NCBI GenBank assembly: GCA_964371055.1
Contig: CAYJLF010000004.1
Location: 3,993 to 67,992 of the forward strand
Source of the DNA: an uncultured bacterium
GTDB lineage: Bacteria; Eisenbacteria; RBG-16-71-46; CAIMUX01
Length of the DNA: 64,000 nucleotides
Direction: 5' to 3'
In this document: positions 1,996 to 34,306 of the stretch, piece by piece
Layout of the letters: each line of letters begins with the position of its first letter
How positions within the stretch are numbered: the first letter of the stretch is position 1
Program-made: the position numbers and the translations under genes
The notes under the pieces: model-generated
What the model saw: the letters and a program-made list of their open reading frames with translations, nothing else
What the model was told of the DNA's origin: nothing
The model's database searches: none

Positions 1996-3648
1996 GTGGC
2001 ACTGAACTTACCATCGCCCGGGCAGAGCCGTCAAGGGGTGCCGCGCGGCTGGCGGTGGGGGGCGGCGGTGGCGGCCGGGCTCTTCCAGGCGGCCGCCTTC
2101 CCGCCGCTGGGGGCCGCCCCGCTCGCGTGGGTGGCGCTTCTGCCGTTGATCTACGCCTGCAATGCCCCGCCGGCGCCCGGCGAGGTCCCCTCCACCCTCC
2201 GCCAGCGATTCCTGCTGGGGCTGACGGCGCAGGGGGTCTTCTTCTTCGCCCTCCTCCATTGGATCCTCTTCCTGCCGAACGATGAGGTGACGATTCCGGG
2301 ACTCATGGTGCCGGCTCTGCTCTTCCTGTCGGGCTACCTGGCGCTCTTCTTCGGCCTGGCGTGTGCCCTCCCCGCCGTCCTGGAACGCAGGGCAGGGGTG
2401 CCGGCGGCGGTCAGCTTCCCGATCCTCTGGACTCTGGCCGACGCGCTGCGGTCGTCCGGAACGCTCGCCTTCCCCTGGGGATCGCTCGGCTACGCGCTGG
2501 CCGGACAGCCGGCCGCGATCCAGCTCGTCGCATGGACCGGTTTCTGGGGACTGACCCTGCAGATCGCCTCCGTCAACGCGTTCCTCTATGCGGCGGTCCG
2601 CGCGTGGGAGTCGGGAAGCCGCTCCGCGGCGGCCCGTCGCTTCGCCGGAGCCGCCTTGACGCTCGGGATCCCCGTGGCCATCGGCGCGAGCCTGCTCACC
2701 GGCGCGACGGAGACGATGGACGGAGCGCATCGCTTTGCGCTCGTGCAGGCCAACACCCCCCGGGAGGTCAAGTGGAAGGAAGGATACGAGGGGATCGTGA
2801 TCGGGGATCTCCTCGCGCGCACGCGGGAGGCCGCGCGACATGAGCCCGACCTGGTCGTCTGGCCGGAGACGGCGGCGCCCGTTCTGATCCTTTGGCGGCC
2901 CGAGCTGGCCGACAGCGTCAGCCGGACGGTTCGCGAGCTCGGTCATTGGGTGCTGGTCGGAACGCTCGACGCCCGGATCCTGCCGGACCGCTCGGTGGAG
3001 AGCTACAACGCGGCGATCCTCTACGATCCACGCGGGATCCCGGTGCAGCGGTACTACAAAGTGCGCCTCGTCCCTTTCAGCGAGCGGATGCCGTTCACCC
3101 GCCGCCTGCCGTGGCTCAATGCGCTCAACTTCGGCCAGTCGGACTTTTCGCCCGGGCGGGAGCCGAACCTCTTCGAGGCGGGCGGAACGCGGTTCTCGGT
3201 CCTGATCTGCTTCGAGTCGATCTTCCCGGAACTGGCGCGGCGGTGGGTGGCCGGCGGATCGCGATACCTGGTCAACATCACGAACGACTTCTGGTTCGGA
3301 CGGAGCGCCGGACCGGTGCAGCACGCCGACATGGCGATTCTGCGCGCGGTCGAGAACCGCACGCCGTTGGTGCGCTGCGCCAACAGCGGGATCAGCTTCG
3401 TCGTCGATCCGTGGGGGCGGGTCTCCCATCGCACCGGGCTCTTCGTCGAGGCTCTGCCGGTGGTGGAGGTCGGCCCCGGGCGCGGGGGGACGTTCTACAC
3501 CCGATACGGGGACTGGCTGCTCTGGGTGCTCCTCGCCTCGGCCCTGCTCATGTTTGTGACCGCAGCGCGCACGATAAGATTGCCCTTCGTCGGTCGCCGG
3601 CATCACAATCGCCGTCGCGGGCCGTCCGCCGGAGGGGAGGAGACGTGA
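1996..3648 (+). CDS. lnt: apolipoprotein N-acyltransferase
   Basis: Multi-TM N-terminus ('LAWVALLPLIYA') plus a CN-hydrolase domain ('VVWPETA', 'LICFESIFPE'). The likely GTG start at 1996 has a GGGAGG RBS. The track ORF extends to 1909. Confidence 0.8.
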   Translation: MALNLPSPGQSRQGVPRGWRWGAAVAAGLFQAAAFPPLGAAPLAWVALLPLIYACNAPPAPGEVPSTLRQRFLLGLTAQGVFFFALLHWILFLPNDEVTIPGLMVPALLFLSGYLALFFGLACALPAVLERRAGVPAAVSFPILWTLADALRSSGTLAFPWGSLGYALAGQPAAIQLVAWTGFWGLTLQIASVNAFLYAAVRAWESGSRSAAARRFAGAALTLGIPVAIGASLLTGATETMDGAHRFALVQANTPREVKWKEGYEGIVIGDLLARTREAARHEPDLVVWPETAAPVLILWRPELADSVSRTVRELGHWVLVGTLDARILPDRSVESYNAAILYDPRGIPVQRYYKVRLVPFSERMPFTRRLPWLNALNFGQSDFSPGREPNLFEAGGTRFSVLICFESIFPELARRWVAGGSRYLVNITNDFWFGRSAGPVQHADMAILRAVENRTPLVRCANSGISFVVDPWGRVSHRTGLFVEALPVVEVGPGRGGTFYTRYGDWLLWVLLASALLMFVTAARTIRLPFVGRRHHNRRRGPSAGGEET

Positions 3649-6021: not shown

Positions 6022-6830
6022 GCGCTGAGGAGCGCGCGCCGGAGGATGCCCCGTCCTACCGCATCCTCGTGGCCTACGATGGCGGGCCTTACCACGGCTG
6101 GCAGTTCCAGCCGGGCCTGCCGACGGTTCAGGGCGAGCTGGAACGTGCGATCCACGCGATCACCGGTTCAGCGATCCGCGTGCAGGGGGCGGGCCGCACC
6201 GACGCCGGCGTCCACGCGCTCGGCCAGGTGGCCAGTTTCCGGGTGGAAACGCGGATTCCCGCGGAGCGACTCGCGGCCGCGTTGAACGCCCACCTCCCTC
6301 CTTCGATCCGCGTCCTCGCTTCGGCGGCCGCACCGGCTCCGTTCGCCGCGCGTTTCTCCGCCCACTGGCGCGCCTATCGCTATCTCCTCGCGCCGCGGGA
6401 GACGCCCTTCACGCGGGGTCGCGCCGTCGTGCCTCGGGGCTGGCCGGCGCTCGAACCGATGCGCCGCGCGCTGCCGGCGATCCTCGGCGAACACGAATTC
6501 CGCGCTTTCACCACGCAGCCGGACGGACCGTTCGGCTGCCGGGTGCACGAGGCGACGTGGGAGGAATGGGACGAGGGAGTTCTCTTCTCCATCCGGAGCA
6601 ACCGATTCCTCTACCAGATGGTGCGGATCCTGGTCGGGACCTGCCTCGAGATCGGGCGGGGCCGACGCGAGGCGGAGAGCCTGGCGACGCTGCTCGAGGG
6701 GGGGGATCGCCGGGCCGCGGGCCCGCTGGCGCCGGCTGGTGGGCTCTATCTCGCCGCGGTCGGATACGACCCGCCGTGGCCCGACGACTCCCTGCTAGCT
6801 CCGCGGAGCGGCCTCGTCCCTCGGGCCTGA
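6018..6830 (+). CDS. truA: tRNA pseudouridine(38-40) synthase
   Basis: 'ILVAYDGGPYHGWQFQP' and 'GAGRTDAGVHALGQV' with the catalytic Asp in the TruA motif. GTG start overlaps the asd stop as GTGA. Confidence 0.85.
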   Translation: MSAEERAPEDAPSYRILVAYDGGPYHGWQFQPGLPTVQGELERAIHAITGSAIRVQGAGRTDAGVHALGQVASFRVETRIPAERLAAALNAHLPPSIRVLASAAAPAPFAARFSAHWRAYRYLLAPRETPFTRGRAVVPRGWPALEPMRRALPAILGEHEFRAFTTQPDGPFGCRVHEATWEEWDEGVLFSIRSNRFLYQMVRILVGTCLEIGRGRREAESLATLLEGGDRRAAGPLAPAGGLYLAAVGYDPPWPDDSLLAPRSGLVPRA

Positions 6831-7526
6831 ATCGGCGCGCGGGCGCCAGCGCCGATAGCGCCAGAGCGTCTGCAGGGTCTCCCACCCGTCGCGCGCGCGG
6901 ATCTTCTTTCCCTCCGAGAGGTGTCGCGGGTGGTAGAGGATCGGAACTTCCACGATCCGTTCGCCGAGTCGGGCCGCCTTCGCCGTCACCTCCGCGCAGA
7001 ACTCGAACCGCTCGCAGACCAGGTCCATCCGGTCGACGAGTTCGCGCGCGATCAGCTTGTAGCAGGTCGGTTCATCGGTCAGGCGGAGGCGGTAGATGAG
7101 ATTCGCCGCCCAGGTGACGAGGATTCCCCCGAGGTAGAAGGCGAGCGCAGAGTACTGCCGATTCGCCCGATGGAGCCGGCGCGATCCGTAGACGACGCGG
7201 GCTCCCGTGGTGCGGGCCGTCTCCAGCAGCAGGCGGAGGTCGGCCGGTTCGTACTCGAGGTCGGCATCCTGCGGCACGACGAACTCTCCGGTGGCCTGCT
7301 GCAGGGCGGTGCGGAGGGCCGCGCCTTTGCCGCGGTTCTGCGCATGTCGCAGCACGCGCACCCGATCGGCGTAGTTCTGGAGGATCGCGGCGGTTCGATC
7401 GCGCGAGGCATCATCGACGACCACGATCTCCTTCTCGACGCCCAGATCGACTTCGAGGACGCGGTCGAGCAGCGCCGCGATCGTGCGCTCCTCGTTGTAG
7501 ACCGGCACCAGGATGCTCAGGCGCAC
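6795..7526 (-). CDS. GT2-family glycosyltransferase, polyprenyl-phosphate sugar synthase type (DPM1/ArnC/GtrB-like)
   Basis: 'LSILVPVYNEE...VVVDDASRD...DADLE' GT-A DXD-type motifs. Its ~240-aa size is typical of Und-P/Dol-P sugar synthases. It overlaps the upstream GT-C gene by 10 nt. Confidence 0.8.
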   Translation of the reverse strand: MRLSILVPVYNEERTIAALLDRVLEVDLGVEKEIVVVDDASRDRTAAILQNYADRVRVLRHAQNRGKGAALRTALQQATGEFVVPQDADLEYEPADLRLLLETARTTGARVVYGSRRLHRANRQYSALAFYLGGILVTWAANLIYRLRLTDEPTCYKLIARELVDRMDLVCERFEFCAEVTAKAARLGERIVEVPILYHPRHLSEGKKIRARDGWETLQTLWRYRRWRPRADSGPRDEAAPRS

Positions 7527-8779
7527 GAACGTTCCCTCCGGAGAAAGCGCAAGAGCGCATAGCCCGAGAAGAGGAACGAGAGCGCGACCGCGGGTGCGAG
7601 GTAGCGGGCGAACGGGAAGACGAACGCCTGGAAGAGGGTGACGAAGGAGACGAGCAGGAGGGCCGGCCAGGCGCGCGCGAAGGCCGCCGGTTCCCGTCGA
7701 CGGAGCGAGCGGGCCCCCGCGAGGAAGAGGACGAAGAGCGGCAGGTGGACGAGGAGGCTGAGCACGCGCTTCCCGCGCCCCAGGGTCTGGAACCAGGAGA
7801 ACGGAATCCCCACCAGCCCCCGGGCGACGAAGCCGAGCGGATCCCGGCCGATTTCCTGCAGGACGAGATCGCGCGCCACCCGCTCATGCCGGATCGCCTC
7901 ACCGGCGGTCCGGTATGCCTGCGACCGGTCGCCGCCGTAGAGCCGGTCGACCACGATCTGGTGCCGCTGCCGGTCCGCTGCCTGGTCGATCACGCGCAGG
8001 TCTTCCCAGCGCAGCATCCCCTTCGAGCACTGGATGCCGTGGTAGAAAGGGGCCCATCCCCAGGCGGAGACCGGCACGGCGACGCCGGTCAGCCGGTGGT
8101 TGCGCGCCGCCCACGGAGCGATGACGACGAGGGTGGCGACAAGGGCCGGGACCGCCCACCGGAGCGCGTGGCGCGCCCCCGGGCGCATCCTCGCGGGGAG
8201 GTAGAGCAGGAGCGCGAGAAAGGGGGGAAACGCCAGGAGAGTGCCGCGCGTGAGGAGCCCTAGTCCGAAGAAGAGGCCGGCGAGGAATCCGTCGCGCGCC
8301 GAGGCGCGGGCGATCGCGCGCGCCAGGAAGAGGGCGAAAGCCAAAAAGAGCGGGAAGTAGAGGTTCTCGCTGTAGAGCCGGGCCGCGTACTCGATCGCGG
8401 TCAGGTGCACGGCGCCGAGAGAGGCGGCGGCGAGCCCGAGCGTCGGGCCCAACACCCACCGTCCGAGCAGGAAGAGCAGCCAGCAACAGAGTCCCCCCAG
8501 GAGCGCCTGCGCGACCTGGACAGCCGCATAATCGACGCCGGCGAAGCGGAAGATCCCCGCGAGGAAGAAGGGGTACCCAGGCGGGCGCTGCAGGGTCGGG
8601 GGGTGCTCAGGGATCAGCCGGTAACCGAGTCCGTCGTGCAGGTGTTCCGCGATGCGCTCGTAGCCGTCGGTGGTTTCGGTCTCGGGGCGCGTGTCCAGCC
8701 ACGCGCGGGCCACGCCGAAGGCGAAGGTCAGGCGCAGCGCGACAGCCGCCGCGACGATCCACCACAACGTCCGATGCAT
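7517..8779 (-). CDS. GT-C fold glycosyltransferase, ArnT/PMT_2 (GT83/GT39-like) family integral membrane protein
   Basis: Polytopic 420-aa membrane protein. It has an N-terminal periplasmic-loop motif 'TDGYERIAEHL', like the ArnT 'DETRYAEISREML' motif. It sits immediately upstream of, and co-directional with, the GT2 gene. Confidence 0.75.
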   Translation of the reverse strand: MHRTLWWIVAAAVALRLTFAFGVARAWLDTRPETETTDGYERIAEHLHDGLGYRLIPEHPPTLQRPPGYPFFLAGIFRFAGVDYAAVQVAQALLGGLCCWLLFLLGRWVLGPTLGLAAASLGAVHLTAIEYAARLYSENLYFPLFLAFALFLARAIARASARDGFLAGLFFGLGLLTRGTLLAFPPFLALLLYLPARMRPGARHALRWAVPALVATLVVIAPWAARNHRLTGVAVPVSAWGWAPFYHGIQCSKGMLRWEDLRVIDQAADRQRHQIVVDRLYGGDRSQAYRTAGEAIRHERVARDLVLQEIGRDPLGFVARGLVGIPFSWFQTLGRGKRVLSLLVHLPLFVLFLAGARSLRRREPAAFARAWPALLLVSFVTLFQAFVFPFARYLAPAVALSFLFSGYALLRFLRRERSCA

Positions 8780-8983
8780 CCTCTCCCATCCACGACCGGT
8801 ACCTGCGTTCGTTCCGCCGGTCCGAGTATGGCCGACCGCGCGCCGCTCGGGGTCAGGAATCGCGAGGCAGCGCTGGAACGGCTCTTCGACCCGGGCGGCT
8901 TCCGGGGGCCGGGACCGGACCGGGTTCTCTTTCCGCCATCGGCCCTCGTTTGCGCCTTCGCGAGGACCGACTGCGGGGGACGG

Positions 8984-11900
8984 TCAGGGAGAGAGGTAGA
9001 TGGGGCGCAGCAGCCGGCGTCCGCCGCCGGTGCAGAGCAGATAGTGGAGCCCGGGTCCCGCCAGTCCGCCCGCCGAGTTGCGGCGGTCCCAGCTCGCCTC
9101 GATCACCGTCCCCGGCCGCACCGCCGCTTCGAAGAGCCGAGCGACCCGCCCGCCGTCCAGGGCGAGGATCTCGAGCCGAAGAACCGCCTGGGGGGGAAAG
9201 TCGGCAGGGACCGTGACGCGGAAGCGGCAGCCGTCCGCCACCGGGTGAGGGAAGGGGCCCTCGACTTCCCAGGTCTCGGCATAGAGCTCCAGCGGGGCTG
9301 AGAGCTGGCTCTCGGCGCCCCCGCGGGTCTCTGCTCGGACCGACACCCGGCGAACCGTGGCGGGATCGGGCCGGTCGAGTTCCCAGACAGCCGTCGGGAT
9401 CAAGGTCTCGGTCAGGCGGAACCAGCCGCCAGGAGCGCCCTGGGCATAGAGACGGTAACCACTGACCCGCGGATCGGCGGAAGGCTCCCAGCGGAGCTCG
9501 AGGCGCGATCCATCCTGACTCCACGACGCCGCGAGGTTGGCGGGGGGATCGGGCGGCGCCAGGTCCTCGGTGTCGGTGCGGAACGATCGAAGGGGCGAGA
9601 GGGGCGAGACGCGGCCGTCGGCGGCGACGGAGCGCACCGCGAGGTGATAGTCGGTCGCTTGCTGGAGGTCCTCGATCACCCACTCGACCGAGTCGCCGGG
9701 AGCCCCCGGCTCGGGCGATTCGACTTCGGTCGCCAGGTTCCAGTTGCTGTCGGCGATGGCGGCCCGGGAGAGGCGGGTTTCGTACCGCGCCGGCACCGGC
9801 GCATCCGCGGGAACGGCCGGGTGCTCCAGGCGCATCGTCACCGAGTTGGTGCCCGCCGCCAGGACTTCGAGCACCGTGACCGCCGGCGGATCCTGAGCCG
9901 GCGGGGGCGGATCGCTCACGAACGGCTCAAGCCTCACACTCGCCGCGAGGGGCGACCACTGCCCTGCCGCGTCGGACGCCCGCACCGCGAGCCATCCCTC
10001 GGACGCCGGGACGAGGCCATCCCATCGGGCCGACATCGTCTCGCCGGCCGGGCGCGGGGTCACCTCGGCGGGAATCGGCGTGGAGGCCTCCCAGAGTGCC
10101 TCGTCTGAAATCGGAGCGTCGAAACTCATTCTTAGATCATAGATTGTGGCCACACCTTCAAGTGAATCCTCACCGGTCGCCACCCACTCCAGTCGAGCCC
10201 AGGTGTCACCCCGATCGCTCACGAGGAGTCCCGCGACGGCGGCGGGGGGCGGGTCTGGGGTGTCGGTGGTGTCCGGCGGGTCGGGGGGCGGCGCAAGCGG
10301 TTCGGTCGTCAACAGGATCGAGTTCGAGATCGGCCCGAATAGGCCCGCCGCGTCCCGCGCCCTCACGGCAAAGCCGTAGGGCGTCGAGGGGGCGAGGTCA
10401 TGGACGCGGGTGGCCTCGACCTCTCCGGGGGGGACCGGGAACGCGATCGCGGCGGTATCGACGGCGGCCCGCGACCAGTCTTCAGCACTCAGGATCAGTC
10501 TCCCCTCGAGATGCGCCACGGCGTATCCGGTGACCGCGACCCCGGTCGTCGAGTCGGCCGGTGCCGTCCACTCGAGATCGACCCAATCGGGTCCGGCCGC
10601 CAGCCGGCCGAGATCGGTGATCCGCTGCGGCGGGAGTGTGTCCGGCTCCGCCGGCGTTTCGACGACGAGCGGGGTGAGGGGCAGCACCGACCGGTGGCCG
10701 GCCGGATCGACCGCCCGGACCGCGATCCCGTACGTCCGCTGGGCCTCGAGACCGAGGACGACAAGAGACCACGGGCCTTCGGCTCCATCCGGGGCGACTT
10801 CCACTTCGCGCGTCGTGTCGGACCGGGACCACGCCTCCTCGCCGGCGATGGCGAGATCCGTGAGCACCCCCACGCGCCAGCGTGCGAGGTCGGTCGGATC
10901 GCCGCCGGCCTCGAGCGACCAGGCGATCTCGACGTCGTGAGGCCGGGCCCACAGGAGACGGAGGTCCGCGGCCGGGGACGGAGGGGTCATGTCGGGGGGT
11001 GGTGGCGGCGGCGACGCGGTCTCCGCCAGGAGAGGATTCGACAACGGCGCCAGGTTGCCGGAGTCGTCTTCCGCCCGCACGGCGAACCCATGCTGACCGA
11101 ATGCGAGTGCGACGACCCGCAGGGTGTCGGTCTTTCCCGGCTCCGAAGGGATCACGGTGGTGGCGTCGATCTCGATCGCTGCCTCCCACCGAGACTCGTG
11201 GTCGATCGCCTCTTCCGCCAGTCGGCGGACCTGGTAGCGCTCGACACGCGGATCGGCATCCGCGCGCGTCGCGATCTCCTCGTACCGGTCCGGCGGCGCG
11301 GTCCAGGCGAGGACGATCCAATCCTCGCCGGCCTCGAGCACCCGGAGATCGGTGATGGCCTCGGGCGCGAGCGTATCCGGATCGACCGGTAACGGAGGAG
11401 GATCCTCGGGGGGCGAGAGGGTGTGGAAGTGCACCGCCGGGCCCATCTCGCCGGCGACCATGGCGGCATCGAAGCCAAAGACCGCCGCGCCGTAGAGTGT
11501 GGCCGGCTCGAGGTCCAGCAGGGTCCAGGTCTCGATCGATCCGGGGGCGGCCGGGGGCGAGGGAAGGATGCGGATCGAACAGCGCGCGAGGTCGGCGACG
11601 CTCAGGAGGGAATCGCCGGCGAGCACCGCCAGGCGGTACTGCGTGCAGGATCCTCCCTCGCCGTCGTCCGGGGCCGTCCACACGAGAGTCGCCTGGGTCG
11701 AGTCGACGGCGGTCACCATCAGGTCGTCGACCGGGGCCGGCGGGCGCTGCGGCGGGGGTGGAGGCGGGACGTACGGTGCGTTCGTGCGCGCGGTGAAGGG
11801 GTTCGAGAGCCCGCCCGTCAATCCCGCGTCATCACGGGCGCGAACGCAGAACCCGTGGAGGCTGTCCGCCGGCAGCCCCTCGAAGCGGAAGAACTGGGTC

Positions 11901-14236
11901 TGCCCCGCGGGAAGGGGAGTCGGCGGCGCGTCCGGCGGCGCGAATCCCGCGGCCCAGTCCGCCTCCGTGCCGATGGCCCGGCCCGGCAAGGCCCGGATCA
12001 GATACGACAGCGCGGTCCCGCTCGATCCGTCGTCGCCGGGCGCGGTCCAGGCCAGTTCGATCCACCTCTCGCCGCGGTCATGCAGCCGGAGATCGGCGAT
12101 CGCGGCGGGCGGCGTCGTGTCGGACGGCGGCGGTGGTGGCGACAGGGTCGAGACCGAGAAGGGGTTGGAGAGGGGTCCGAGATTCCCGGCCGCGTCCACG
12201 GCGCGGACCGCCACACCGTAGGTGACGCCGGGCTGCAGGGCGTAGAGCCTGAACTCCTCCGGCGTGCCGGGATTCCCCGGCGCCGGGATCGAGCCGGAGG
12301 CCGGGGTCGCGGCGGACCACTCGCTCTCGCTCGTGATCGCTCCCCCCAGGCGATAGCGGATCCGGTAGGCGGTCGCACGCCCGGGCGGGCTTTCCTCCGC
12401 CGGCGCAGTCCAGGCCAGGTCGATCCAGCTCTGGCCGCGAGCGGTGGAGCGGACATCGGAGATGGCCGCGGGCGGACTCAGGTCCTGCACCCCCGTAGAG
12501 GTGGTGGCCACGGCCACGTTGCTGGTCCCCGGTTCCAGGCGGCCGTAGACGCGATGCTTCAGGGCGAAGTGGTAGGTCGTGTTCGCCGCGAGGCCGGTCA
12601 CGACGATCGAGACGCCCGCCCCCGGGGCCGCCGTAATCGGGTTTCCGCTCCACGCCGTCGCGTTGTTCCAGTTCGCGGCCGAGATGGGGAAGGGGGCGTA
12701 GCGCAGCTCGGCCCAGTCGATCGGCGACCAGGTCTGGTCGGGCGCGGTCCAGGCGACGCGCACGCGGTCGGATCCCTCGGTCGACGCCGTGAGGTTGCTC
12801 ACCGTCTGCCAGAATCCGAAGCGGCTGTCGCGCGCCGGGACGCTGTTGACGGCGCGGGGGTGTGGGTTCACCTCGACGAAGCCGCGGCTGAAGATCCGGG
12901 TGTAGAGGGTGTCGGGCGGGCTGCCGGTGTAGGTGTCGCGCCCGTAGGGTCCGAGCGGTTGGCCGAAGTCCCACTCGAACTCCGGCTGCCACCAGAGGCC
13001 GCACTCATCCGGCGTGTAGTTGAAGAAGCCGTCTCCGAGCAGCGACGTGCCGAGTCCCCACCGCTTGACCCGAGCCTGCTCCGCGACCGGGGCGTTGGGA
13101 GCCGGGATCACCTGCAGCAGCGTGTGATCCCATCCCTCGATCTCATCGGTTCCGTGATACCCGACCATGTCCTCGGCCCACCGATAGCCCGGTCCGAGCA
13201 TTTCGGTGTGGTCGTAGCTCATCACGCCGTAGAAACCTTCCCACCAGTCGACCCAGGGATTCCAGAGGTAGCTGCACCAGCGCTCGATTTTGATCCCCGT
13301 CACCTCGGTCCGCCATTCCGGCATCATCCGCTTCGTGGCCGTGTTGAGGATGACGAGGACACCCTCGTTCTGCAGGCGCGCCACCTCCTCGCCGAAGAGT
13401 TCGTTCATCTCCCGGTAGAGAATCGAGAGGGAGTCGGCGTCGCCGCCAGATTCGCACGAGTGGTAGACCCCTTCGGCGATCCCATCCCGGTCGGGGTCGG
13501 CCTGGGCATAGGTCTGCCAGCCGAACGAGCCGACGCAGTCGACGAGGATCTCCAGATCGAGGCCGTTGTAGGCGGCACTCCCCGGTCCCCACTTGGGCCA
13601 GATCGTGCCGCTCGTGATGAGGCGCGGCATGACGACCTGGACCAGCCACTCGACGTAGTTGAGCCCCTTGGACGATCCGTAGGTTCCCTTCGGGCAGTAG
13701 CGGGTCCAGTTCGCCGCGTAGCCGTCGGCTTCGGGGATCCGGTTGCCGTGGATGTCCCGCAGGTACCAGTCGTTCTGCTTCGCGTAGAAGAGACAGAGCT
13801 TGCCGATGCTCCACGTCGTGTCGGGGTACCACCACGTGGCGTTCTCGTTCCACTTCACGATGTTCTGGGGCATCCAGTTGTAGAAGAGTTCCACGTCGGG
13901 GTTGCGTTGGCGGACCGCCGACACGGTGTGCGGGCTGTCGCGCAGGAGAACGAGGTCGAACCACGCCAGGGTGTCGAGTTGGGCGGGGGTCATCGTCCCG
14001 ACGCTGCAGACGTACTGCGCGATCCGGGGATAGTTCTCCACGCCGCGGGTAGCCCCGGCCGGCCCTGCGAGCCCCGCGAGGGCGGCCGCGCCGAGGAGTA
14101 GAAGGGCCGCCCCGGTGAGTCCGGAACGGCCGGTGGAGGAAGGGAGAGAACGCACGAAGGGACACCTGAAAGAGGAGTGCCATGAGGAGACCGGCGGCCG
14201 GGAAGCGATAAATCGTCTAAGCCGTTGGCCGTTCAT
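8984..14236 (-). CDS. giant secreted multidomain protein (~1750 aa): signal peptide, glycoside-hydrolase-like TIM-barrel-type domain, ~12 Fn3-like repeats with Pro/Thr-rich linkers, FlgD-Ig/T9SS-like C-terminal domain
   Basis: The signal peptide h-region is 'GAALLLLGAAALAGLAG'. The ~410-aa N-domain is rich in Trp/aromatics ('NGLDLEILVDCVG', 'WNPWVDWWEGFYG'). There are repeated 'WI.LAWTAP...YG.AVRA.DAAGNLGPLSNP' units separated by PPPPP/DTT linkers. The C-terminus reads '...WDRRNSAGGLAGPGLHYLLCTGGGRRLLRPIYL'. Start is taken at ATG 14236 (AAGGG RBS), with an alternative GTG at 14155. The track ORF continues to 17080 but that part is antisense to htrA and purB. Confidence 0.8.
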   Translation of the reverse strand: MNGQRLRRFIASRPPVSSWHSSFRCPFVRSLPSSTGRSGLTGAALLLLGAAALAGLAGPAGATRGVENYPRIAQYVCSVGTMTPAQLDTLAWFDLVLLRDSPHTVSAVRQRNPDVELFYNWMPQNIVKWNENATWWYPDTTWSIGKLCLFYAKQNDWYLRDIHGNRIPEADGYAANWTRYCPKGTYGSSKGLNYVEWLVQVVMPRLITSGTIWPKWGPGSAAYNGLDLEILVDCVGSFGWQTYAQADPDRDGIAEGVYHSCESGGDADSLSILYREMNELFGEEVARLQNEGVLVILNTATKRMMPEWRTEVTGIKIERWCSYLWNPWVDWWEGFYGVMSYDHTEMLGPGYRWAEDMVGYHGTDEIEGWDHTLLQVIPAPNAPVAEQARVKRWGLGTSLLGDGFFNYTPDECGLWWQPEFEWDFGQPLGPYGRDTYTGSPPDTLYTRIFSRGFVEVNPHPRAVNSVPARDSRFGFWQTVSNLTASTEGSDRVRVAWTAPDQTWSPIDWAELRYAPFPISAANWNNATAWSGNPITAAPGAGVSIVVTGLAANTTYHFALKHRVYGRLEPGTSNVAVATTSTGVQDLSPPAAISDVRSTARGQSWIDLAWTAPAEESPPGRATAYRIRYRLGGAITSESEWSAATPASGSIPAPGNPGTPEEFRLYALQPGVTYGVAVRAVDAAGNLGPLSNPFSVSTLSPPPPPSDTTPPAAIADLRLHDRGERWIELAWTAPGDDGSSGTALSYLIRALPGRAIGTEADWAAGFAPPDAPPTPLPAGQTQFFRFEGLPADSLHGFCVRARDDAGLTGGLSNPFTARTNAPYVPPPPPPQRPPAPVDDLMVTAVDSTQATLVWTAPDDGEGGSCTQYRLAVLAGDSLLSVADLARCSIRILPSPPAAPGSIETWTLLDLEPATLYGAAVFGFDAAMVAGEMGPAVHFHTLSPPEDPPPLPVDPDTLAPEAITDLRVLEAGEDWIVLAWTAPPDRYEEIATRADADPRVERYQVRRLAEEAIDHESRWEAAIEIDATTVIPSEPGKTDTLRVVALAFGQHGFAVRAEDDSGNLAPLSNPLLAETASPPPPPPDMTPPSPAADLRLLWARPHDVEIAWSLEAGGDPTDLARWRVGVLTDLAIAGEEAWSRSDTTREVEVAPDGAEGPWSLVVLGLEAQRTYGIAVRAVDPAGHRSVLPLTPLVVETPAEPDTLPPQRITDLGRLAAGPDWVDLEWTAPADSTTGVAVTGYAVAHLEGRLILSAEDWSRAAVDTAAIAFPVPPGEVEATRVHDLAPSTPYGFAVRARDAAGLFGPISNSILLTTEPLAPPPDPPDTTDTPDPPPAAVAGLLVSDRGDTWARLEWVATGEDSLEGVATIYDLRMSFDAPISDEALWEASTPIPAEVTPRPAGETMSARWDGLVPASEGWLAVRASDAAGQWSPLAASVRLEPFVSDPPPPAQDPPAVTVLEVLAAGTNSVTMRLEHPAVPADAPVPARYETRLSRAAIADSNWNLATEVESPEPGAPGDSVEWVIEDLQQATDYHLAVRSVAADGRVSPLSPLRSFRTDTEDLAPPDPPANLAASWSQDGSRLELRWEPSADPRVSGYRLYAQGAPGGWFRLTETLIPTAVWELDRPDPATVRRVSVRAETRGGAESQLSAPLELYAETWEVEGPFPHPVADGCRFRVTVPADFPPQAVLRLEILALDGGRVARLFEAAVRPGTVIEASWDRRNSAGGLAGPGLHYLLCTGGGRRLLRPIYLSP
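9290..12800 (-). repeat. tandem array of ~12 divergent Fn3-like domain-coding repeats inside the giant gene
   Basis: The protein-level periodicity is ~95-140 aa with a conserved Trp ('LAWTAP') and a Tyr-corner ('YG.AVRA.D.AG'). Linkers are PPPP/DTT. Coordinates are approximate. Confidence 0.6.
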
Positions 14237-22649: not shown

Positions 22650-23888
22650 GTGATCGAGCTCTACATCGCGCGGCGCTACCTCGTTCCCAAGCGGGGACGG
22701 GGTCTCCTCTCGCTCATCACCTGGATCTCGGTCGGCGGGGTCGCCCTCGGGGTGCTGGCGCTCATCGTGGTCCTGGCCGTGATGAACGGCTTCGAGCGTG
22801 AGGTGAAGACGCGGATCATCGGGACCAACGCTCACGTGACCCTTCTCCGGTACGGGGCGCAGGGGATCGAAGGGGTCCCGGAACTCCTGGCGGCGGTCCG
22901 AGGCCATCCCGAGGTGGTCGCGGCCGCTCCGATGGTCTACGGCAAGGCGATGATCAGCGGGCGCGGCGGCGCCGACGGGATCGTGGTCAAGGGAATCGAA
23001 CCGGCGGCGGCGGCGGCGGTGACCGACCTCACCCACTATGTCGAGGGCGGGATGGACCAAGCCGACCTCGAGCCGGGGGAGGGAGATCTCCCCGGGATCA
23101 TCCTCGGCGTGCACGTCGCCGACAACCTGCAGGTGACCCTCGGCGAGCGGGTGCAGTTGATGGCGCCGCAGGTCGGCACGGTCTCGCCTCTCGGTTATGT
23201 CCCGCGCGTTCGCAACTACCGGGTGGTCGGGCTCTTCCGTTCCGGCATGTACGAGTACGATTCCGCGCTCGCGTTCATCGCGCTCAGCCAGGCGCAGGCC
23301 TTCTTCGGACTCGGCGCGCGGGTCTCCGCGGTCGAGGTGAAGGTGCGAGAGATGTACCGGGCGCCGCAGGTGGCGGAGGATCTGGTCGCCCGCGCCGGAG
23401 GTTTCCCCTATCGGAGCCAGGACTGGATCGAGATGAACGCGAATCTCTTCTCTTGGATGCAGACCGAGAAGAGGGTCATGTTCGTCATCCTGGCGCTCAT
23501 CGTGACGATCGCCGCCTTCAACATTCTGGCGGCTTTGATCATGCTGGTGAAGGAGAAGCGCCGCGACATCGGGATCCTCCGCTCGATGGGGGCGACCACG
23601 GCGATGATCCGGGGGATCTTCGTGGCGGAGGGAGCGATCATCGGCGGCACCGGGATGATCCTGGGCGGCGCCGGGGGGCTCCTGCTCTGCTATCTGCTGG
23701 AGCGGTACAAGTTCATCCCGCTCCCCGGCGACATCTACTTCATCGACACCCTTCCGGTGCGGGTCGAGACGCTCGATGTAATTGCGGTGCTGGCGAGCGT
23801 GCTCGTGATCTGCGTTCTGGCGACGCTCTATCCGGCGCGACAGGCGGCGCGTCTGAACCCGGTGGAGGCGATCCGTCATGGTGAATGA
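22650..23888 (+). CDS. lolC: lipoprotein-release ABC transporter permease (LolC/E/F, FtsX family)
   Basis: FtsX-like architecture: four TM segments, a large periplasmic loop, and a 'YPARQAARLNPVEAIR' C-terminus. It is followed by lolD. Confidence 0.8.
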   Translation: MIELYIARRYLVPKRGRGLLSLITWISVGGVALGVLALIVVLAVMNGFEREVKTRIIGTNAHVTLLRYGAQGIEGVPELLAAVRGHPEVVAAAPMVYGKAMISGRGGADGIVVKGIEPAAAAAVTDLTHYVEGGMDQADLEPGEGDLPGIILGVHVADNLQVTLGERVQLMAPQVGTVSPLGYVPRVRNYRVVGLFRSGMYEYDSALAFIALSQAQAFFGLGARVSAVEVKVREMYRAPQVAEDLVARAGGFPYRSQDWIEMNANLFSWMQTEKRVMFVILALIVTIAAFNILAALIMLVKEKRRDIGILRSMGATTAMIRGIFVAEGAIIGGTGMILGGAGGLLLCYLLERYKFIPLPGDIYFIDTLPVRVETLDVIAVLASVLVICVLATLYPARQAARLNPVEAIRHGE

Positions 23889-24615
23889 TGATCTCGTCCC
23901 CTTCCTGCGCGTGCGGGGGGTGCATCGGCGCTTCCACATGGGCGGTTCGGAAATCCACATCCTGCGGGGAGTCGACCTCGACCTGCAGGCGGGTGAGATC
24001 GCGGCCGTCACCGGGACCTCCGGGGCCGGCAAGAGCACGCTGCTCCACATCCTCGGAGCGCTCGACCGGCCGGACGAGGGGTCGGTCCGGGTGGGCGGGG
24101 TCGAGCTGTTCGCGCTTTCGGAGAGTGAGCTGGCGAAGTTCCGCAACCGGAACCTCGGATTCGTGTTTCAGTTCCACCACCTCCTGCCGGAGTTCACCGC
24201 CGAGGAAAACGTCATGATGCCGGGGCTGATCGCCGGGCTCGCTCCCTCCCGGGCGCGGGAGCGGGCGCGGAACCTGCTCGAGGAGGTCGGGCTCGGCGAC
24301 CGCGCCGAGCACAAGCCGGACGAGCTTTCGGGCGGGGAACAGCAGCGGGTCGCCCTCGCGCGCGGGCTGTACGGCGAACCCCGTCTGATCCTGGCCGACG
24401 AGCCGACCGGAAACCTGGATCCAGAGACCGCCCGGGGCCTGCACGAGCTGATGTATACTCTGGCGCGGAAGCACCGCCAGAGCTGGGTCGTGGTCACGCA
24501 CAACCCACAGCTGGCCGCACGGGCCGATCGATGGTTGCGGCTGGACGAAGGGGTGCTGCGAACGGCGCGGGAGGGATCCGCGCCGGGGATCGAAGGGATC
24601 GAGGGAACCGCATGA
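23878..24615 (+). CDS. lolD: lipoprotein-release ABC transporter ATP-binding protein
   Basis: Walker A 'GTSGAGKST', ABC signature 'LSGGEQQRVALAR' and Walker B 'ILADEPTGNLD'. Confidence 0.85.
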   Translation: MVNDDLVPFLRVRGVHRRFHMGGSEIHILRGVDLDLQAGEIAAVTGTSGAGKSTLLHILGALDRPDEGSVRVGGVELFALSESELAKFRNRNLGFVFQFHHLLPEFTAEENVMMPGLIAGLAPSRARERARNLLEEVGLGDRAEHKPDELSGGEQQRVALARGLYGEPRLILADEPTGNLDPETARGLHELMYTLARKHRQSWVVVTHNPQLAARADRWLRLDEGVLRTAREGSAPGIEGIEGTA

Positions 24616-25133
24616 AGTGCCAGAATTGCGACGCCGAGGCGACCATTTTCTACAAGGAGGTCGTCGGCGGAGACCTGCGCGAGATCCATCTCTGCGAAGC
24701 CTGCGCGGCGGAGAAGGGCTTCCACCTGGTCATCGAGCAGAGCAAGCTGAACATCGCCAACCAGTTCATCTGGATGGCCGAGAACCTCTATCCCGAGAGC
24801 GCGACCAAAGTCGGTGCGGTCCAGTGCCCCGGGTGCGGCCTGCGCTACAGCCAGTTTGCCCGGACCGGCCGCCTCGGCTGCGAAGGGTGCTACGCCGCCT
24901 TCGAAGTGCAGCTCAAGCAGATTCTCCGCCGCGTGCACGGCGCCACGCGCCACAAGGGGAAGGCTCCACGCGCCGGTGATGCCGCGGCCGGACGACGGCG
25001 CGACCTCTTGCGGCTCCGCGAGGAGCTGAGCCGCGCGATCGAGCGGGAGGAGTTCGAGCAGGCCGCGCAGCTGCGAGACGAGATCCGCGTCCTCGAGACG
25101 GGGCCGGGCCCCGGGGCGGGAGGGGCGAGTTGA
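24612..25133 (+). CDS. mcsA: McsA-like zinc-finger/UVR-domain protein (activator of protein arginine kinase)
   Basis: Four CxxC pairs ('CQNCD...CEAC', 'CPGCG...CEGC') plus a C-terminal UVR-like motif 'EEFEQAAQLRDEIRVLE'. ATG overlaps the lolD stop as ATGA. It lies immediately upstream of mcsB. Confidence 0.7.
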   Translation: MKCQNCDAEATIFYKEVVGGDLREIHLCEACAAEKGFHLVIEQSKLNIANQFIWMAENLYPESATKVGAVQCPGCGLRYSQFARTGRLGCEGCYAAFEVQLKQILRRVHGATRHKGKAPRAGDAAAGRRRDLLRLREELSRAIEREEFEQAAQLRDEIRVLETGPGPGAGGAS

Positions 25134-26200
25134 TCCCGATCGAAGACCTGGTCGCTCGCACCGGCGCGTGGCTGTCGGGCTCCGGCCCGCACGCCGACCG
25201 GATCCTCTCCACCCGCGTCCGTCTGGCGCGCAACCTCGCCGGCCAGCGCTTCGTCGGGCGGGCGCTGCCGGAGGACCTGCGCCGGATTCTGACCCAGGTG
25301 ACCGAGGCGGCCCTCGGCACCGGCCTCTTCGAGGGGGGCGGAGCGCAGGGGATCGAGGAACTCCCGCTTCTCGACCGGCAATTCCTCCTCGAACGCCACC
25401 TGGTGTCGCACGACCTGACGGGCGAGGCGGTCGGGCGAGGACTGGTGCTGGCGTCTCACGAGGGGATCTCGCTTCTGGTCAACGAGGAAGACCATCTGCG
25501 GCTCCAGGCGCTGGAGGGGGGATTCAACCTGGAGACGGCGTGGCAGCGGGCGCAGGCGCTCGATGCGGCCCTCGAGACCCACCTGACGTTCGCCTTCCAC
25601 GAGGACCTGGGCTACCTCACCGCCTGTCCCACCAACACCGGCACGGGGATGCGCGCCTCGGTCCTGATGCACCTTCCGGCGCTGGTCTTGACCCAGCGGA
25701 TGAAGAAGATCCTGGCCGGGGTCTCGCAGGTCGGCCTGACGGTGCGCGGCTACTACGGCGAGGGGACCGAGGTGATGGGGAACTTCTTCCAGGTCTCGAA
25801 CCAGGTGACCCTGGGCGAGACCGAGGAAGAGACGCTGACCAAGCTCACGAAAGTCGTCCGCCAGATCCTCGATTGGGAGGACAAGGCCCAGGACCAGCTC
25901 CTGCGCCAGGCCCGGCGCCAGGCCGAGGACAAGATCGGCCGCTCGTTCGGGACCCTGCGGTACGCCCGCCTGATCACCTCGCAGGAGGCGATCGGGCTCC
26001 TCTCCGCCGTCCGGTTCGGGCAGACGCTGGGACTGCGGAATCTCCCCGGGATTCCGGTGTTGAACGAACTTCTGGTCCGCTGTCAGCCGGCTCACCTGCA
26101 GAAGACGGCCGGGCGGGCCATGGATTCCGAGGAACGCAACGAATACCGGGCAGGGTTGATCCGCCGTCATCTCGGCGTGACCGACGCGCCGGAGGCCTGA
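25130..26200 (+). CDS. mcsB: protein arginine kinase (ATP:guanido phosphotransferase family)
   Basis: Phosphagen-kinase active-site signature 'CPTNTGTGMRASV'. 356 aa. TTG start overlaps the mcsA stop as TTGA. Confidence 0.85.
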   Translation: MIPIEDLVARTGAWLSGSGPHADRILSTRVRLARNLAGQRFVGRALPEDLRRILTQVTEAALGTGLFEGGGAQGIEELPLLDRQFLLERHLVSHDLTGEAVGRGLVLASHEGISLLVNEEDHLRLQALEGGFNLETAWQRAQALDAALETHLTFAFHEDLGYLTACPTNTGTGMRASVLMHLPALVLTQRMKKILAGVSQVGLTVRGYYGEGTEVMGNFFQVSNQVTLGETEEETLTKLTKVVRQILDWEDKAQDQLLRQARRQAEDKIGRSFGTLRYARLITSQEAIGLLSAVRFGQTLGLRNLPGIPVLNELLVRCQPAHLQKTAGRAMDSEERNEYRAGLIRRHLGVTDAPEA

Positions 26201-26256: not shown

Positions 26257-28704
<2,448 letters not shown>

Positions 28705-28711
28705 CAGGGGG

Positions 28712-31213
28712 ATGCGCTTTCCCGCGACGTCGCGCGTCGCCTCCGGGATCTGGAGTCGAGGGCCGTCCCTGTGGCTCACTCCGGTGCTCGCGGCCCTGCT
28801 CTCGGTCGGACTTCGTCCGGCCGCCGGGCAGATGCTCTCGCCATCCGCGGTGGTCGATCCTCTGGCCGGGCGTCCGGTCAGCCGCATCGAGGTCCTCGGC
28901 AACCGGACCGCCGAGACCCGCCTGATCCTGCGCACCAGTCTGCTCGAGACCGGGCGGCCGGCCGACCGCGAGCGGATCCGCGAGGCGGTCCGCGCGCTCT
29001 ACGGGCTCGGCCTCTTCGAATCGATCCGCGTCACCGACTGGCCCGACTCCGGCGAGGGCCGCGCCCTCGCGATCGAGGTGACGGAGAACCCCCGCCTCGC
29101 CGCGATCCTCTGGGAGGGGAACAAGCGTCTGAAAGACGATGACCTGCGGGCGAAGATCGACCTGCGCGCCGGTCAGGTGATGACGGGGCGCAAGCTGTTC
29201 GAGGCCGTGCAGGCGATCGGGGCGGCCTATCGCGACGAGGGATACCCTTCGGCCCGCGTCGAGTCGCGACTGGAGGATGCGATCCCGGAGCGGCAGCGCG
29301 AGGAGGAGCAGCGCCGCCGGGAAGAGGAGGCCAGAGCGCGGGAAGCGGAGGGAGAGGAGGCGACGGACCGGGAGGAGCGTTTCGCGCGGCTCGATCGGCC
29401 CGTCCTCACGGCCGTCGAGGGGAGGAAGGATCTCACCTTCGTCGTGACCGAAGGGGGGCGCGTGTCGATCCGGGCGGTCGAGTTCGCCGGGGCGACCGCC
29501 TTCAAGCCCGGGGACCTGCAGGGTCCGCTCGCCCTCAAGCCGAACTCGCTCTTCCGGCGGAAGCGGTACACCGCCGAACGTGGACGGGAGGATCGGGAGA
29601 AGCTCGTCGAGTTCTACCAGAACCACGGCTACAAGGATGTCGTGGTGGAAGGTCCCGAGGCGGTCTTTGCCGACGGGGGAGAGTCGGTCACCCTGCGTTA
29701 CACGGTGAACGAGGGGCCGGCCTACCGCTTCGGCACGGTCCGTTGGTCGGGCAATACGGCGGTGCCGACGGAGGCGCTCCAGGCTTCATCCAGCGTGATG
29801 CGCGGCGAACCGTACAGCCGGGCGAGACTCGACGCGACGACGGGCGCTGCGTACGAGCTCTACACGGAGAAGGGACATCTGCTCGAGCTTTCGATCCAGC
29901 CCGAGATCGAGACCGTCGGCGACACGGTATCGGTCGCCTACCGCATCCAGGAGGGAAGTCCGTCGCGGGTCAGAGAGATCACGATCGCGGGCAATACCCG
30001 GACGAAGGAGCGGGTCATCCGGCGTGAGCTGAGCCTCTGGCCCGGGCAACTGCTGCGCCGGTCGGTCCTGCTGCGCAGTCATCGGGACGTCTTCGCTCTG
30101 GGGTTCTTCGAGGATGTGCAAATCGACTACGAGCCGGTCGGCATCGGCTCCGACGTGAATGTCTCCTTCCTGGTCAAGGAGAAGGGGACGGGCACGGCGA
30201 CCGCGGGGGCCGGGTATGCCGGCGACACCGGGTTGACCGGGTTCGTCCAGTTCGGGCATAACAACCTCTTCGGGAACGGCCAGGCCCTGCAGCTCCATCT
30301 CGAGCGGGGCAGCCGGCGGCGCACCTACGACATCTCCTTCACCGAGCCGTGGGTCTTCAACACCCCCACCTCCCTCGGTTTTCAGCTCTACAACACGGTG
30401 CGGGAGTACGATCTCTACAGCGCCCGCGAACGGGGCGGCGGGATCAACCTGGGACGGCAGCTTCCGCCGAAGCTGTGGGGAGTCCGGCTCCCCGACTACT
30501 CCCGCGCGTCCCTCGGATACACGCTCGAGGAAGTGCGCTACAGCGATCTGGAGGATCTCGATCCGGAGAGCCGCGAGATCCTGCGGGACGGCAACGGCAC
30601 CGTCTCGCGCGTCAACATGGCTTTCAGCCGCAACAGCACCGACAATCCCTTCAACCCCACCGCGGGGAGCCGCAGCCTGGTCCGGCTCGAGCTGGCCGGG
30701 GCGGTCCTCGGCGGCGGGATCCACTACTACAAGCCGGAGATCGACCACCGGGTCTACTTCGTGCCGTTCTGGAAGCCGGCCGTGATGCTGCGGAACCGCG
30801 TCGCGCTGGTCGGCAAGTATCCCGGCGAGAAAATCCCAGGTTCTGAGACGTTCCGCCTCGGCGGCACCCGCACCGACTACCTGCGCGGGTATCCCGACTA
30901 CGAGATCATGCCGGAGGAGAACGTCCGCGTCATCGACGGCCGTGAGGTGCGCTTTCCCGGCGGACGGTTCGCCTACACTTTCACCGCGGAGTACCAGTTC
31001 CCGATCGTCAATCCGGTGCGGGGCCTGGTCTTTTTCGACGCCGGCAATACCTGGAACGAGGCGGGCGACTTCACGGTGGGCAACCTGAAGAAGGGGGTCG
31101 GAGCGGGGATTCGCCTGGAGATCCCGATGCTCGGTGTCGTCGGCTTCGACTACGGCTACGGCGTCGATCGCGGCAAGTGGCAATCACACTTCATCATCGG
31201 GCCCGCTTTCTAA
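28712..31213 (+). CDS. bamA: outer membrane protein assembly factor BamA (Omp85)
   Basis: Signal peptide, multiple POTRA domains, and a C-terminal 16-strand barrel ending in aromatic 'IGPAF'. Conserved bamA-skp-lpxD context. Confidence 0.85.
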   Translation: MRFPATSRVASGIWSRGPSLWLTPVLAALLSVGLRPAAGQMLSPSAVVDPLAGRPVSRIEVLGNRTAETRLILRTSLLETGRPADRERIREAVRALYGLGLFESIRVTDWPDSGEGRALAIEVTENPRLAAILWEGNKRLKDDDLRAKIDLRAGQVMTGRKLFEAVQAIGAAYRDEGYPSARVESRLEDAIPERQREEEQRRREEEARAREAEGEEATDREERFARLDRPVLTAVEGRKDLTFVVTEGGRVSIRAVEFAGATAFKPGDLQGPLALKPNSLFRRKRYTAERGREDREKLVEFYQNHGYKDVVVEGPEAVFADGGESVTLRYTVNEGPAYRFGTVRWSGNTAVPTEALQASSSVMRGEPYSRARLDATTGAAYELYTEKGHLLELSIQPEIETVGDTVSVAYRIQEGSPSRVREITIAGNTRTKERVIRRELSLWPGQLLRRSVLLRSHRDVFALGFFEDVQIDYEPVGIGSDVNVSFLVKEKGTGTATAGAGYAGDTGLTGFVQFGHNNLFGNGQALQLHLERGSRRRTYDISFTEPWVFNTPTSLGFQLYNTVREYDLYSARERGGGINLGRQLPPKLWGVRLPDYSRASLGYTLEEVRYSDLEDLDPESREILRDGNGTVSRVNMAFSRNSTDNPFNPTAGSRSLVRLELAGAVLGGGIHYYKPEIDHRVYFVPFWKPAVMLRNRVALVGKYPGEKIPGSETFRLGGTRTDYLRGYPDYEIMPEENVRVIDGREVRFPGGRFAYTFTAEYQFPIVNPVRGLVFFDAGNTWNEAGDFTVGNLKKGVGAGIRLEIPMLGVVGFDYGYGVDRGKWQSHFIIGPAF

Positions 31214-31223
31214 GGAGAGAGAG

Positions 31224-31787
31224 ATGGAACGACCGCGGCGCGAGACACGAAGGGTCGGAGTCGTGGCGGTGGCGATCGGCCTCGCGTTCATCGCGGCCGG
31301 GATCGCGCGGGCCGACGTCCGGATCGCCTTCGTCAACTCCGAGACGATCCTCGAGCAGTCGAAGGAGGCGCAGAACGCGCTGGCCGGCTTCACGCGCGAT
31401 GTCGAAGGGTGGAACAAGGAGGCGCAGGACCGGCGCAAGGGGCTGGATGATCTGACGCGCGAACTGACCCAGCAGGCGCCGATGCTCAGCGACGAGAGGC
31501 GGCGCGAGCTGGAGCAGGACCTGCAGCGCAAGCTGACCGAGTACGACCAGTACATCCAGAGCATCTGGGGTCCCAACGGGCTGGTCGTCAAGCGGAACGA
31601 AGAGGTGCTCCGCCCGATCGTGACCAAGATCCAGCTCGAGTTGCAGACGATCGGCGCGGAGGAGGGGTACGACATCGTCTTCGATGCGGCCGACGCCAAT
31701 GTGCTGTATGCTGATCCGGCCCTCGATCTGACGGCCCGGATCATCGAGAAGTTGAACGCCGATCTGGAAACCGGCCAGGGGAACTGA
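31224..31787 (+). CDS. skp: periplasmic chaperone Skp/OmpH
   Basis: Signal peptide plus a coiled-coil-rich ~165-aa body. Conserved position between bamA and lpxD. AAGGAGAGAGAG RBS. Confidence 0.75.
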   Translation: MERPRRETRRVGVVAVAIGLAFIAAGIARADVRIAFVNSETILEQSKEAQNALAGFTRDVEGWNKEAQDRRKGLDDLTRELTQQAPMLSDERRRELEQDLQRKLTEYDQYIQSIWGPNGLVVKRNEEVLRPIVTKIQLELQTIGAEEGYDIVFDAADANVLYADPALDLTARIIEKLNADLETGQGN

Positions 31788-34292: not shown

Positions 34293-34306
34293 GGGGGAGG
34301 GGTTCG

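Follow-up and report, generated by a model that had tools for sequence, protein, structure and literature searches.

The stretch of DNA analysed here, 64,000 nucleotides (nt) long and hereafter called the window, comes from an uncultured bacterium whose closest named relatives, by sequence comparison, are metagenome-assembled genomes (MAGs) of Candidatus Eisenbacteria, and its G+C content is 70%. Our subject is a group of three minus-strand genes in it, encoding a small family 2 glycosyltransferase (GT2), a membrane glycosyltransferase of the GT-C fold, and a large secreted protein with fibronectin type III (Fn3) domains. A preliminary description of the locus had proposed that these genes make up a dedicated O-glycosylation system encoded together with its substrate, and its coordinates and strands for all three agreed with our check of the open reading frames (ORFs).

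The glycosyltransferases and the large secreted protein

The GT2 gene (6795-7526, minus strand, GTG start) encodes 243 amino acids with no transmembrane (TM) segment and, in particular, no hydrophobic C-terminal segment. Its product matches Glycos_transf_2 (PF00535, E=9e-35), and its best solved relative is the dolichol-phosphate-mannose synthase of Pyrococcus (5mlz, E=2.5e-19), followed by GtrB (5ekp) and ArnC; the alignment with 5mlz covers the full length, residues 1-232 pairing with residues 23-254. These matches back its earlier assignment as a small DPM1/ArnC/GtrB-type enzyme, that is, a putative polyprenyl-phosphate monosaccharide synthase, and the sequence carries the VVDDAS and QDADLE (DxD) motifs of a GT-A catalytic domain. 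The best NCBIfam models, namely AglJ, PgfS, ArnC and PpgS, also describe mostly polyprenyl-phosphate sugar synthases. The protein belongs to no curated NCBIfam equivalog, since it scores 99.5 bits against a cutoff of 325 for AglJ and at most 64 bits against cutoffs of 370-529 for the others.

The GT-C gene (7517-8779, minus strand, ATG start, 420 amino acids) overlaps the GT2 gene by 10 nt. At E<=0.01 its product matches a single Pfam family, the generic PMT_2 (PF13231, E=1.2e-14), and neither of the true PMT models, PF02366 (PMT) and PF16192 (PMT_4TMC). With 18.2 bits against a cutoff of 567 for the ArnT equivalog of NCBIfam (NF009784), it does not cluster tightly with ArnT. A profile of 32 family sequences found no chain at E<=1 among the PDB sequences, ArnT included, and a comparison of folds was therefore needed. 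The AlphaFold2 model obtained from the same 32-sequence alignment (predicted local distance difference test, pLDDT, 93.2; predicted template modelling score, pTM, 0.92) is helical throughout and almost wholly a membrane domain, with no soluble or periplasmic domain predicted. Its fold comparison gave figures of 26.6 for AglB, 24.0 for ArnT, 22.6 for Pmt4, 21.0 for STT3B, 20.9 for ALG12 and 19.1 for AftA.

The match to PF13231 and the GT-C fold thus bear out the description of this protein as a PMT_2-type glycosyltransferase, and we regard it as a minimal GT-C-fold enzyme, putatively a periplasmic transferase that uses a polyprenyl-phosphate-linked sugar. Residues E33, D38 and Y40 are nearly invariant in the family alignment and sit, in the model, in the loop right after TM1, where GT-C_A enzymes hold their catalytic acid, judging from the structures of ArnT, PglB and PMT; such an acidic first loop is common to all GT-C_A enzymes. 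The two-step logic proposed for the pair, in which GT2 makes the lipid-linked sugar and GT-C transfers it, is accordingly well supported at the level of families and folds by hidden Markov model, PDB and fold comparisons. The GT-C family is compact, with about 54 clusters at E<1e-44 before the next matches fall to 1e-20, and its unusually small enzymes could serve as a convenient minimal model. Annotations of the Joint Genome Institute (JGI) name its members 'Ara4N transferase-like', a label that our results do not justify.

The third gene (8984-14236, minus strand, stop codon 8984-8986) encodes 1750 amino acids if read from the ATG at 14236, as first described, or 1723 amino acids from the GTG at 14155, which is the start called on identical metagenome contigs. 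Either start yields the same signal peptide, and residue numbers given here refer to the shorter form. The signal peptide is followed by a TIM barrel resembling GH168 and GHL15, about ten Fn3 domains joined by Pro-rich linkers, and a C-terminal beta-sandwich domain of sorting type; as far as its sequence can tell, this protein is a secreted, Fn3-stalked, glycoside-hydrolase-like enzyme. The putative catalytic domain (12746-14050, minus strand, residues ~36-470), which the preliminary description did not recognise, shows the TIM-barrel fold of GH168, shares 11-17% identity with the solved GH168 enzymes, and scores 25.8 bits with Pfam GHL15, just under the cutoff of 27, in a match confined to the C-terminal part of the profile. 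A total of 21 database homologues of this region were found at 37-54% identity, most of them 510-850 amino acids long; seven carry PF14885, ten a C-terminal FlgD_ig domain (PF13860), and one is named 'putative glycoside hydrolase'. The invariant acidic residues of the hydrolase family alignment are D32, D77, E167, D171, D185, E256, D380 and D408.

The Fn3 array (9296-12793, minus strand; Pfam fn3, E=6e-46) has a period of about 120 amino acids, with a recurrent W-T-A-P-type motif starting at residues 469, 582, 703, 826, 951, 1079, 1196, 1324 and 1556. The C-terminal domain of about 100 amino acids (8987-9295, minus strand) has no direct Pfam or NCBIfam match when searched alone, and is homologous to the C-termini of the paralogues P0126 (phmmer, 1e-14) and P0113 (1e-11); because of this homology, and since ten family members end in FlgD_ig, it is probably an FlgD_ig-like or type IX secretion system (T9SS)-type sorting domain. 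The family is multi-copy in Eisenbacteria, with three copies on one 2.45-Mb contig. On contigs of the same species the large gene was called differently, as two to three ORFs in two low-coverage assemblies (L002, 4590-9796; L004, 1-2524) and as 1724 amino acids in a third sample (L006, 380-5554). All three match the window at 99.8% DNA identity and depart from it by a single indel (L002, L006) or a local break (L004); we put the differing calls down to noise of assembly or to micro-variation between strains within the Fn3 array, and rejected a different gene structure.

Genomic context of the glycosyltransferase pair

Loci related to GT-C were drawn from one-genome-per-species contigs, from JGI metagenomes and by exact look-up of database homologues, and were compared by tblastn and by clustering of neighbouring genes, which gave about 20 independent related loci from Candidatus Eisenbacteria and others. 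GT2 lies directly 3' of GT-C in 16 of them (L007, L009, L011, L013, L014, L016-L020, L028-L032 and L038). Identity to the window is 68-87% for GT2 in all 16 loci, and for GT-C 51-82% in 15 of them and about 36%, over a partial match, in L038. The two genes are in most cases a few bases apart at most, or overlap (by 4 nt in L020). GT-C and GT2 are on this evidence a conserved and translationally coupled two-gene module of Candidatus Eisenbacteria.

The usual and ancestral Eisenbacteria context of this module is the neighbourhood of thrS, which lies 5' of GT-C on the opposite strand in nine loci (L007, L009, L014, L017, L020, L028, L030, L031 and L033), often with a gene for a small PDZ protein downstream. 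What follows the pair in the other loci varies, from Cys/Met-rich secreted proteins to the small PDZ protein, an aminotransferase and similar genes, none of which is kept in all loci; sugar-tailoring enzymes were not found downstream of the pair in any of them. Directly 3' of the pair, L007 (12063-13022) and L020 (11972-12856) encode a secreted protein that is extremely rich in Cys, Met and Gly and has tandem KMPADCCKGMMMGGMG repeats; it may be a metal-binding, possibly copper-binding, periplasmic protein, and no Pfam family is recorded for it. A second candidate lipid-linked-sugar system is found 4 kb downstream of the pair in L019 (6063-9262), whose GT-C is 67% identical to that of the window; it consists of a 320-amino-acid GT2 and a 744-amino-acid fusion of a GtrA_DPMS_TM flippase-like part with DUF6798, and is followed by a beta-helix protein with an FlgD_ig tail.

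A relative of the large secreted protein adjoins the pair only in the window and in L018; at no other locus did any part of it turn up over distances of up to 10 kb (E<=1e-3 to 1e-5). The closest relative of the window is L018, with a GT-C 82% identical and with truA and asd in the same place, and since the whole region is syntenic we ascribe the shared arrangement to close kinship. Between these two loci the glycosyltransferases are 82-87% identical, and the large protein just 51-61%. Conversely, three homologues of the large protein (L021, L022 and L024) all lack GT-C and GT2 genes within 8 kb, and the hydrolase copy of L022 faces away from htrA, as does that of the window. The simplest history would thus be that the large gene stayed next to htrA and that the pair was relocated to its side in the line leading to the window and L018. 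The occurrence of the pair elsewhere without the Fn3 protein is one half of what the preliminary description had itself named as refuting it, the other half, tight clustering of GT-C with ArnT, not being observed; the distribution speaks against the proposal that a dedicated system and its substrate are encoded together. In practical terms, adjacency here reflects phylogenetic inertia after a recent rearrangement, and not functional linkage.

The gap between the large gene and GT-C (8780-8983, minus strand) measures 204 nt, as first reported. A consensus scan found neither a sigma-70-like promoter nor an intrinsic terminator in it, and its RNA fold is no better than that of shuffled sequences (z=-0.65). 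The alignment of the gap between the window and L018 contains one long identical block, the 13-mer GGTCGGCCATACT (8825-8837, minus strand), placed some 45-57 nt 5' of the start of GT-C, the remainder being about 66% identical; CATAC[TC] or TATACT strings recur 5' of GT-C in L008 and L019. This conservation hints that GGTCGGCCATACT is a candidate -10-like element of a promoter belonging to the pair itself, which may be of interest in a phylum for which no promoters have been described.

Possible acceptors of the pair

Beyond the 16 pair loci, MAGs of Steroidobacteraceae and others encode relatives of GT-C at 46-50% identity (E ~1e-104 to 1e-112), which lie inside surface-polysaccharide loci (L010, L012/L025/L026, L015, L027 and L036). 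These loci contain several GT4 genes, a GtrB-like GT2 followed by GtrA, AT3-SGNH O-acetyltransferases, a second PMT_2 paralogue, rmlABCD, MBOAT and GDSL genes; GtrA itself was found in L010, L025 and L026, which are proteobacterial relatives. They match the three-component periplasmic setting described for the modification of O antigens (PMC11127046). By analogy with this wider family, the most likely acceptor of the pair would be a non-protein glycoconjugate. One such locus, from Steroidobacteraceae (L025/L026, 10001-14770), has two PMT_2 GT-C paralogues (456 and 442 amino acids) alternating with two AT3-SGNH O-acetyltransferases; it is rich in GT4 genes, also encodes three unannotated proteins of 450-551 amino acids, and looks like an elaborate locus for the decoration of periplasmic glycans.

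The window encodes a complete pathway for lipid A carrying 3-deoxy-D-manno-octulosonic acid (Kdo), namely LpxD, an LpxC-FabZ fusion, LpxA, LpxB, WaaA and LpxK, plus a GT9 heptosyltransferase. These genes confirm, at the level of gene content, that the source organism is a true diderm with Kdo-lipid A, and lipopolysaccharide (LPS) acceptors are therefore available. We consider it reasonably probable that the pair is a conserved Eisenbacteria GT2/GT-C module for the periplasmic monoglycosylation of an envelope glycoconjugate, which came to lie beside a GH168-like, Fn3-stalked hydrolase by recent rearrangement. The DPM1-like GT2, as a peripheral enzyme, would use a nucleotide sugar to charge polyprenyl phosphate with a single sugar on the cytoplasmic side; this lipid-linked sugar would cross the membrane by means of a flippase not encoded at this locus; and the minimal GT-C would hand it, at the periplasmic face, to an envelope acceptor, for which lipid A, the core or O-chain of LPS and an exopolysaccharide are candidates. 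If so, this would be an uncharacterised but conventional envelope-modifying system, based on a polyprenyl-phosphate-linked sugar and a GT-C enzyme, in an uncultured phylum.

The proposal of a protein acceptor had rested in part on the linkers of the Fn3 array, described as Pro/Thr linkers with a Bacteroidota-type O-glycosylation motif, D-(S/T)-x. All four strings quoted in its favour, PPSDTTPP, PDTTDTPDPP, DPDTLAPE and EPDTLPPQ, are present in the protein. The linkers are indeed Pro-rich (37% Pro, 14% Ala); at 9.7% Thr and 4.6% Ser, against 7.1% Thr and 6.3% Ser in the whole protein, they are not Thr-rich or mucin-like. As for the motif, D[ST][AILVMT] occurs 17 times, against an expectation of 6.2 +/- 2.4 from 2000 shuffles, and its enrichment can be upheld. 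Three of these occurrences (DTT 112, DSL 241 and DTL 415) are invariant or nearly invariant positions of the hydrolase core across the family, and the linker occurrences have a fixed place just before each Fn3 domain, within P-x-D-T-x-P-P-x-x-I-x-D-L. There, four of the nine inter-Fn3 linkers show D-T-(T/L), and the other five have DLS, DMT or DLA, or no motif; a pattern with Leu or Met so often in the place of Thr is not what we would expect if a glycosylated Thr were under selection.

Given its fixed place in the repeat, the D-T-x motif may be a boundary feature common to bacterial Fn3 and Ig-like domains in general. Searching one linker plus Fn3 unit against PDB, with the question of whether DTTPP is a generic Fn3 boundary, returned weak eukaryotic Fn3 matches only; outside the large gene, the pattern D[TS]x[PA]P gave no further clear case when the window was scanned in all six frames. 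In Bacteroidota, proteins with D-(S/T)-x receive a complex glycan of several sugars, which in Tannerella forsythia is a decasaccharide, and the system has a dedicated gene cluster (PMC8550257, PMC6120980). The analogy with that motif is weak, because a single-sugar polyprenyl-phosphate donor implies other machinery, because the motif is found in only four of the nine linkers, and because three of its 17 occurrences belong to the hydrolase core.

Several observations nonetheless weigh against an envelope glycoconjugate as the acceptor. Both in the window and in the thrS-type Eisenbacteria loci the pair lies outside polysaccharide or LPS loci, and no GtrA homologue was found anywhere in the window or beside the pair in the Eisenbacteria loci. 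The acceptor is suggested by relatives at 46-50% identity, whose specificity need not equal that of the GT-C of the window, and the modelled fold is no closer to ArnT than to the protein-glycosylating enzymes AglB, Pmt4 and STT3. To these points are added the enrichment of the motif just described, the conservation of two linker copies (PDTIPP and PPDTLEVPP) in the 51%-identical orthologue of L018, the occurrence of PPDTMPP in one homologue, and the gap before GT-C, where no terminator was found and co-transcription with the large gene is possible. The enriched motif, its conserved linker copies and the gap, together with the co-orientation of the three genes, their retention in L018 and a fold that resembles PMT and oligosaccharyltransferase enzymes as much as ArnT, are what recommends a cassette in which the co-encoded Fn3 protein would be the specific substrate of GT-C and receive the sugar at Thr in its Pro-rich linkers. 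We nevertheless find this very unlikely: the Fn3 protein adjoins the pair in none of its 16 loci other than that of the close relative L018; three homologues of the large protein have no glycosyltransferase neighbours; the enzymes are far more conserved than their proposed substrate; more than half of the linkers lack Ser or Thr at the motif position; and the conserved 13-mer suggests that the pair has a promoter of its own.

The synteny does not count against a broader reading, in which the pair serves a general PMT/Ppm1-like O-glycosylation of Ser/Thr in the disordered Pro-rich segments of many exported Eisenbacteria proteins and its adjacency to the large gene is coincidental; to our knowledge, the genes of Pmt-type systems and those of their substrates are not neighbours. 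A GT2 without TM segments and a PMT_2-type GT-C would mirror the logic of actinobacterial Ppm1/Pmt, and a housekeeping-type site beside thrS and the high conservation of the pair would fit. However, GT-C matches the generic PMT_2 family and neither PF02366 nor PF16192, it has no periplasmic domain at all, and its relatives at 46-50% identity lie within polysaccharide clusters, where their partners are of the GtrA/GtrB type. Experimental precedent is lacking in diderms of this group, and among the 15 listed of 80 papers on Eisenbacteria none was on glycosylation, as far as titles and abstracts show. We therefore hold a general protein O-glycosylation system to be unlikely, and slightly more so its specific form, in which a PMT-like pair with a minimal GT-C decorates Thr in the Pro-rich linkers of surface proteins including the adjacent GH168-Fn3 hydrolase. 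Were the pair to glycosylate proteins, PMT-type O-glycosylation would extend to a diderm lineage outside Actinobacteria, which would be of real interest.

A conserved two-gene module of GT2 and GT-C is also the known design of lipid A head-group modification systems. Such a role, of the ArnC/ArnT, LgmA/LgmB or FlmF2/FlmK type, would suit an organism that makes Kdo-lipid A, and agrees with the weak NCBIfam match to ArnT and with the JGI names. Yet that match, at 18 bits, is far from the cutoff of 567, the family profile retrieves no PDB sequence including ArnT, and the enzyme has no ArnT-like periplasmic C-terminal domain; moreover, arnA/B/D-type sugar-tailoring or deacetylase genes are found beside the pair in no locus, and the lpx cluster (31.9-40.8 kb of the window) is more than 23 kb away. 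Head-group modification of lipid A is accordingly about as unlikely, in our view, as general protein O-glycosylation.

Neighbouring genes and comparison with known systems

The three genes interrupt a run of plus-strand housekeeping genes. On the GT2 side these are dapB, lnt, a gene for an RlmI-like methyltransferase, asd and truA, the last converging on the GT2 gene and overlapping its 3' end by 36 nt; on the side of the large gene they are htrA, which points away from it, purB, purL, purQ and purF. As a Lnt-Ppm1 fusion exists in mycobacteria, we considered whether lnt (1996-3648, some 3 kb from GT2) is its counterpart here. We rejected this as coincidence because lnt is on the other strand, is separated from GT2 by three genes, and is found in no other pair locus.

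Farther away, the cluster for outer-membrane and lipid A biogenesis (28619-40755) runs in the order BamA, Skp/OmpH, LpxD, LpxC-FabZ fusion (32976-34292), LpxA, GFO/IDH/MocA oxidoreductase, LpxB, WaaA and LpxK, with an interval at 37.4-38.0 kb separating LpxB from WaaA. The oxidoreductase (35117-36238) is possibly a GnnA-type enzyme for a diamino-sugar lipid A, and the GT9 heptosyltransferase gene follows at 44760-45878. At 24531-26200, a UVR-motif protein followed by an ATP:guanido phosphotransferase resembles the McsA/McsB protein-arginine kinase pair, which is better known from Firmicutes; in this diderm, it adjoins genes for LolC/E-LolD-like ATP-binding cassette (ABC) components (22650-24615).

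When compared with ArnC/ArnT (GT83), the system differs in a GT-C that has no periplasmic domain, is about 130 residues shorter and scores far below the ArnT cutoff, and in the lack of arnA/B/D/E/F, GT2 being the sole companion in all 16 loci, among thrS, the small PDZ protein and housekeeping genes. With actinobacterial Ppm1/Pmt (GT39) it shares a TM-less DPM1-like synthase and a GT-C of the PMT clan, and the targets would be Pro-rich disordered exported segments; unlike that system, it has no PMT or PMT_4TMC match, a diderm host, and relatives in polysaccharide clusters. Eisenbacteria are usually placed in the Fibrobacterota-Chlorobiota-Bacteroidota (FCB) group, which includes Bacteroidota, and with Bacteroidota O-glycosylation the large protein shares a statistically enriched three-residue motif. 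However, here that motif alternates in the linkers with DLS, DMT and DLA at one position, no multi-gene glycosylation cluster of glycosyltransferases lies near the genes, and GT2 plus GT-C implies a single-sugar polyprenyl-phosphate donor (PMC6120980).

The large protein, in turn, is set apart from the solved GH168 endo-1,3-fucanases by the low identity of its N-terminal domain, and from its homologues of 550-850 amino acids by a stalk of about ten Fn3 domains, which is much longer than theirs. Like GtrA/GtrB/GtrC of Shigella and Salmonella and the GT136 pentofuranose systems, the pair combines a polyprenyl-phosphate GT2 with transfer by a GT-C outside the cytoplasm (PMC11127046). The Eisenbacteria version departs from these Gtr-type systems in that no flippase gene (GtrA, SMR or MATE) adjoins the pair, in that GT2 lacks the C-terminal TM helices of GtrB, and in its place among housekeeping genes and not in a glycan locus, whereas the GT-C relatives at 46-50% identity do sit with GtrA/GtrB-like genes in polysaccharide loci.

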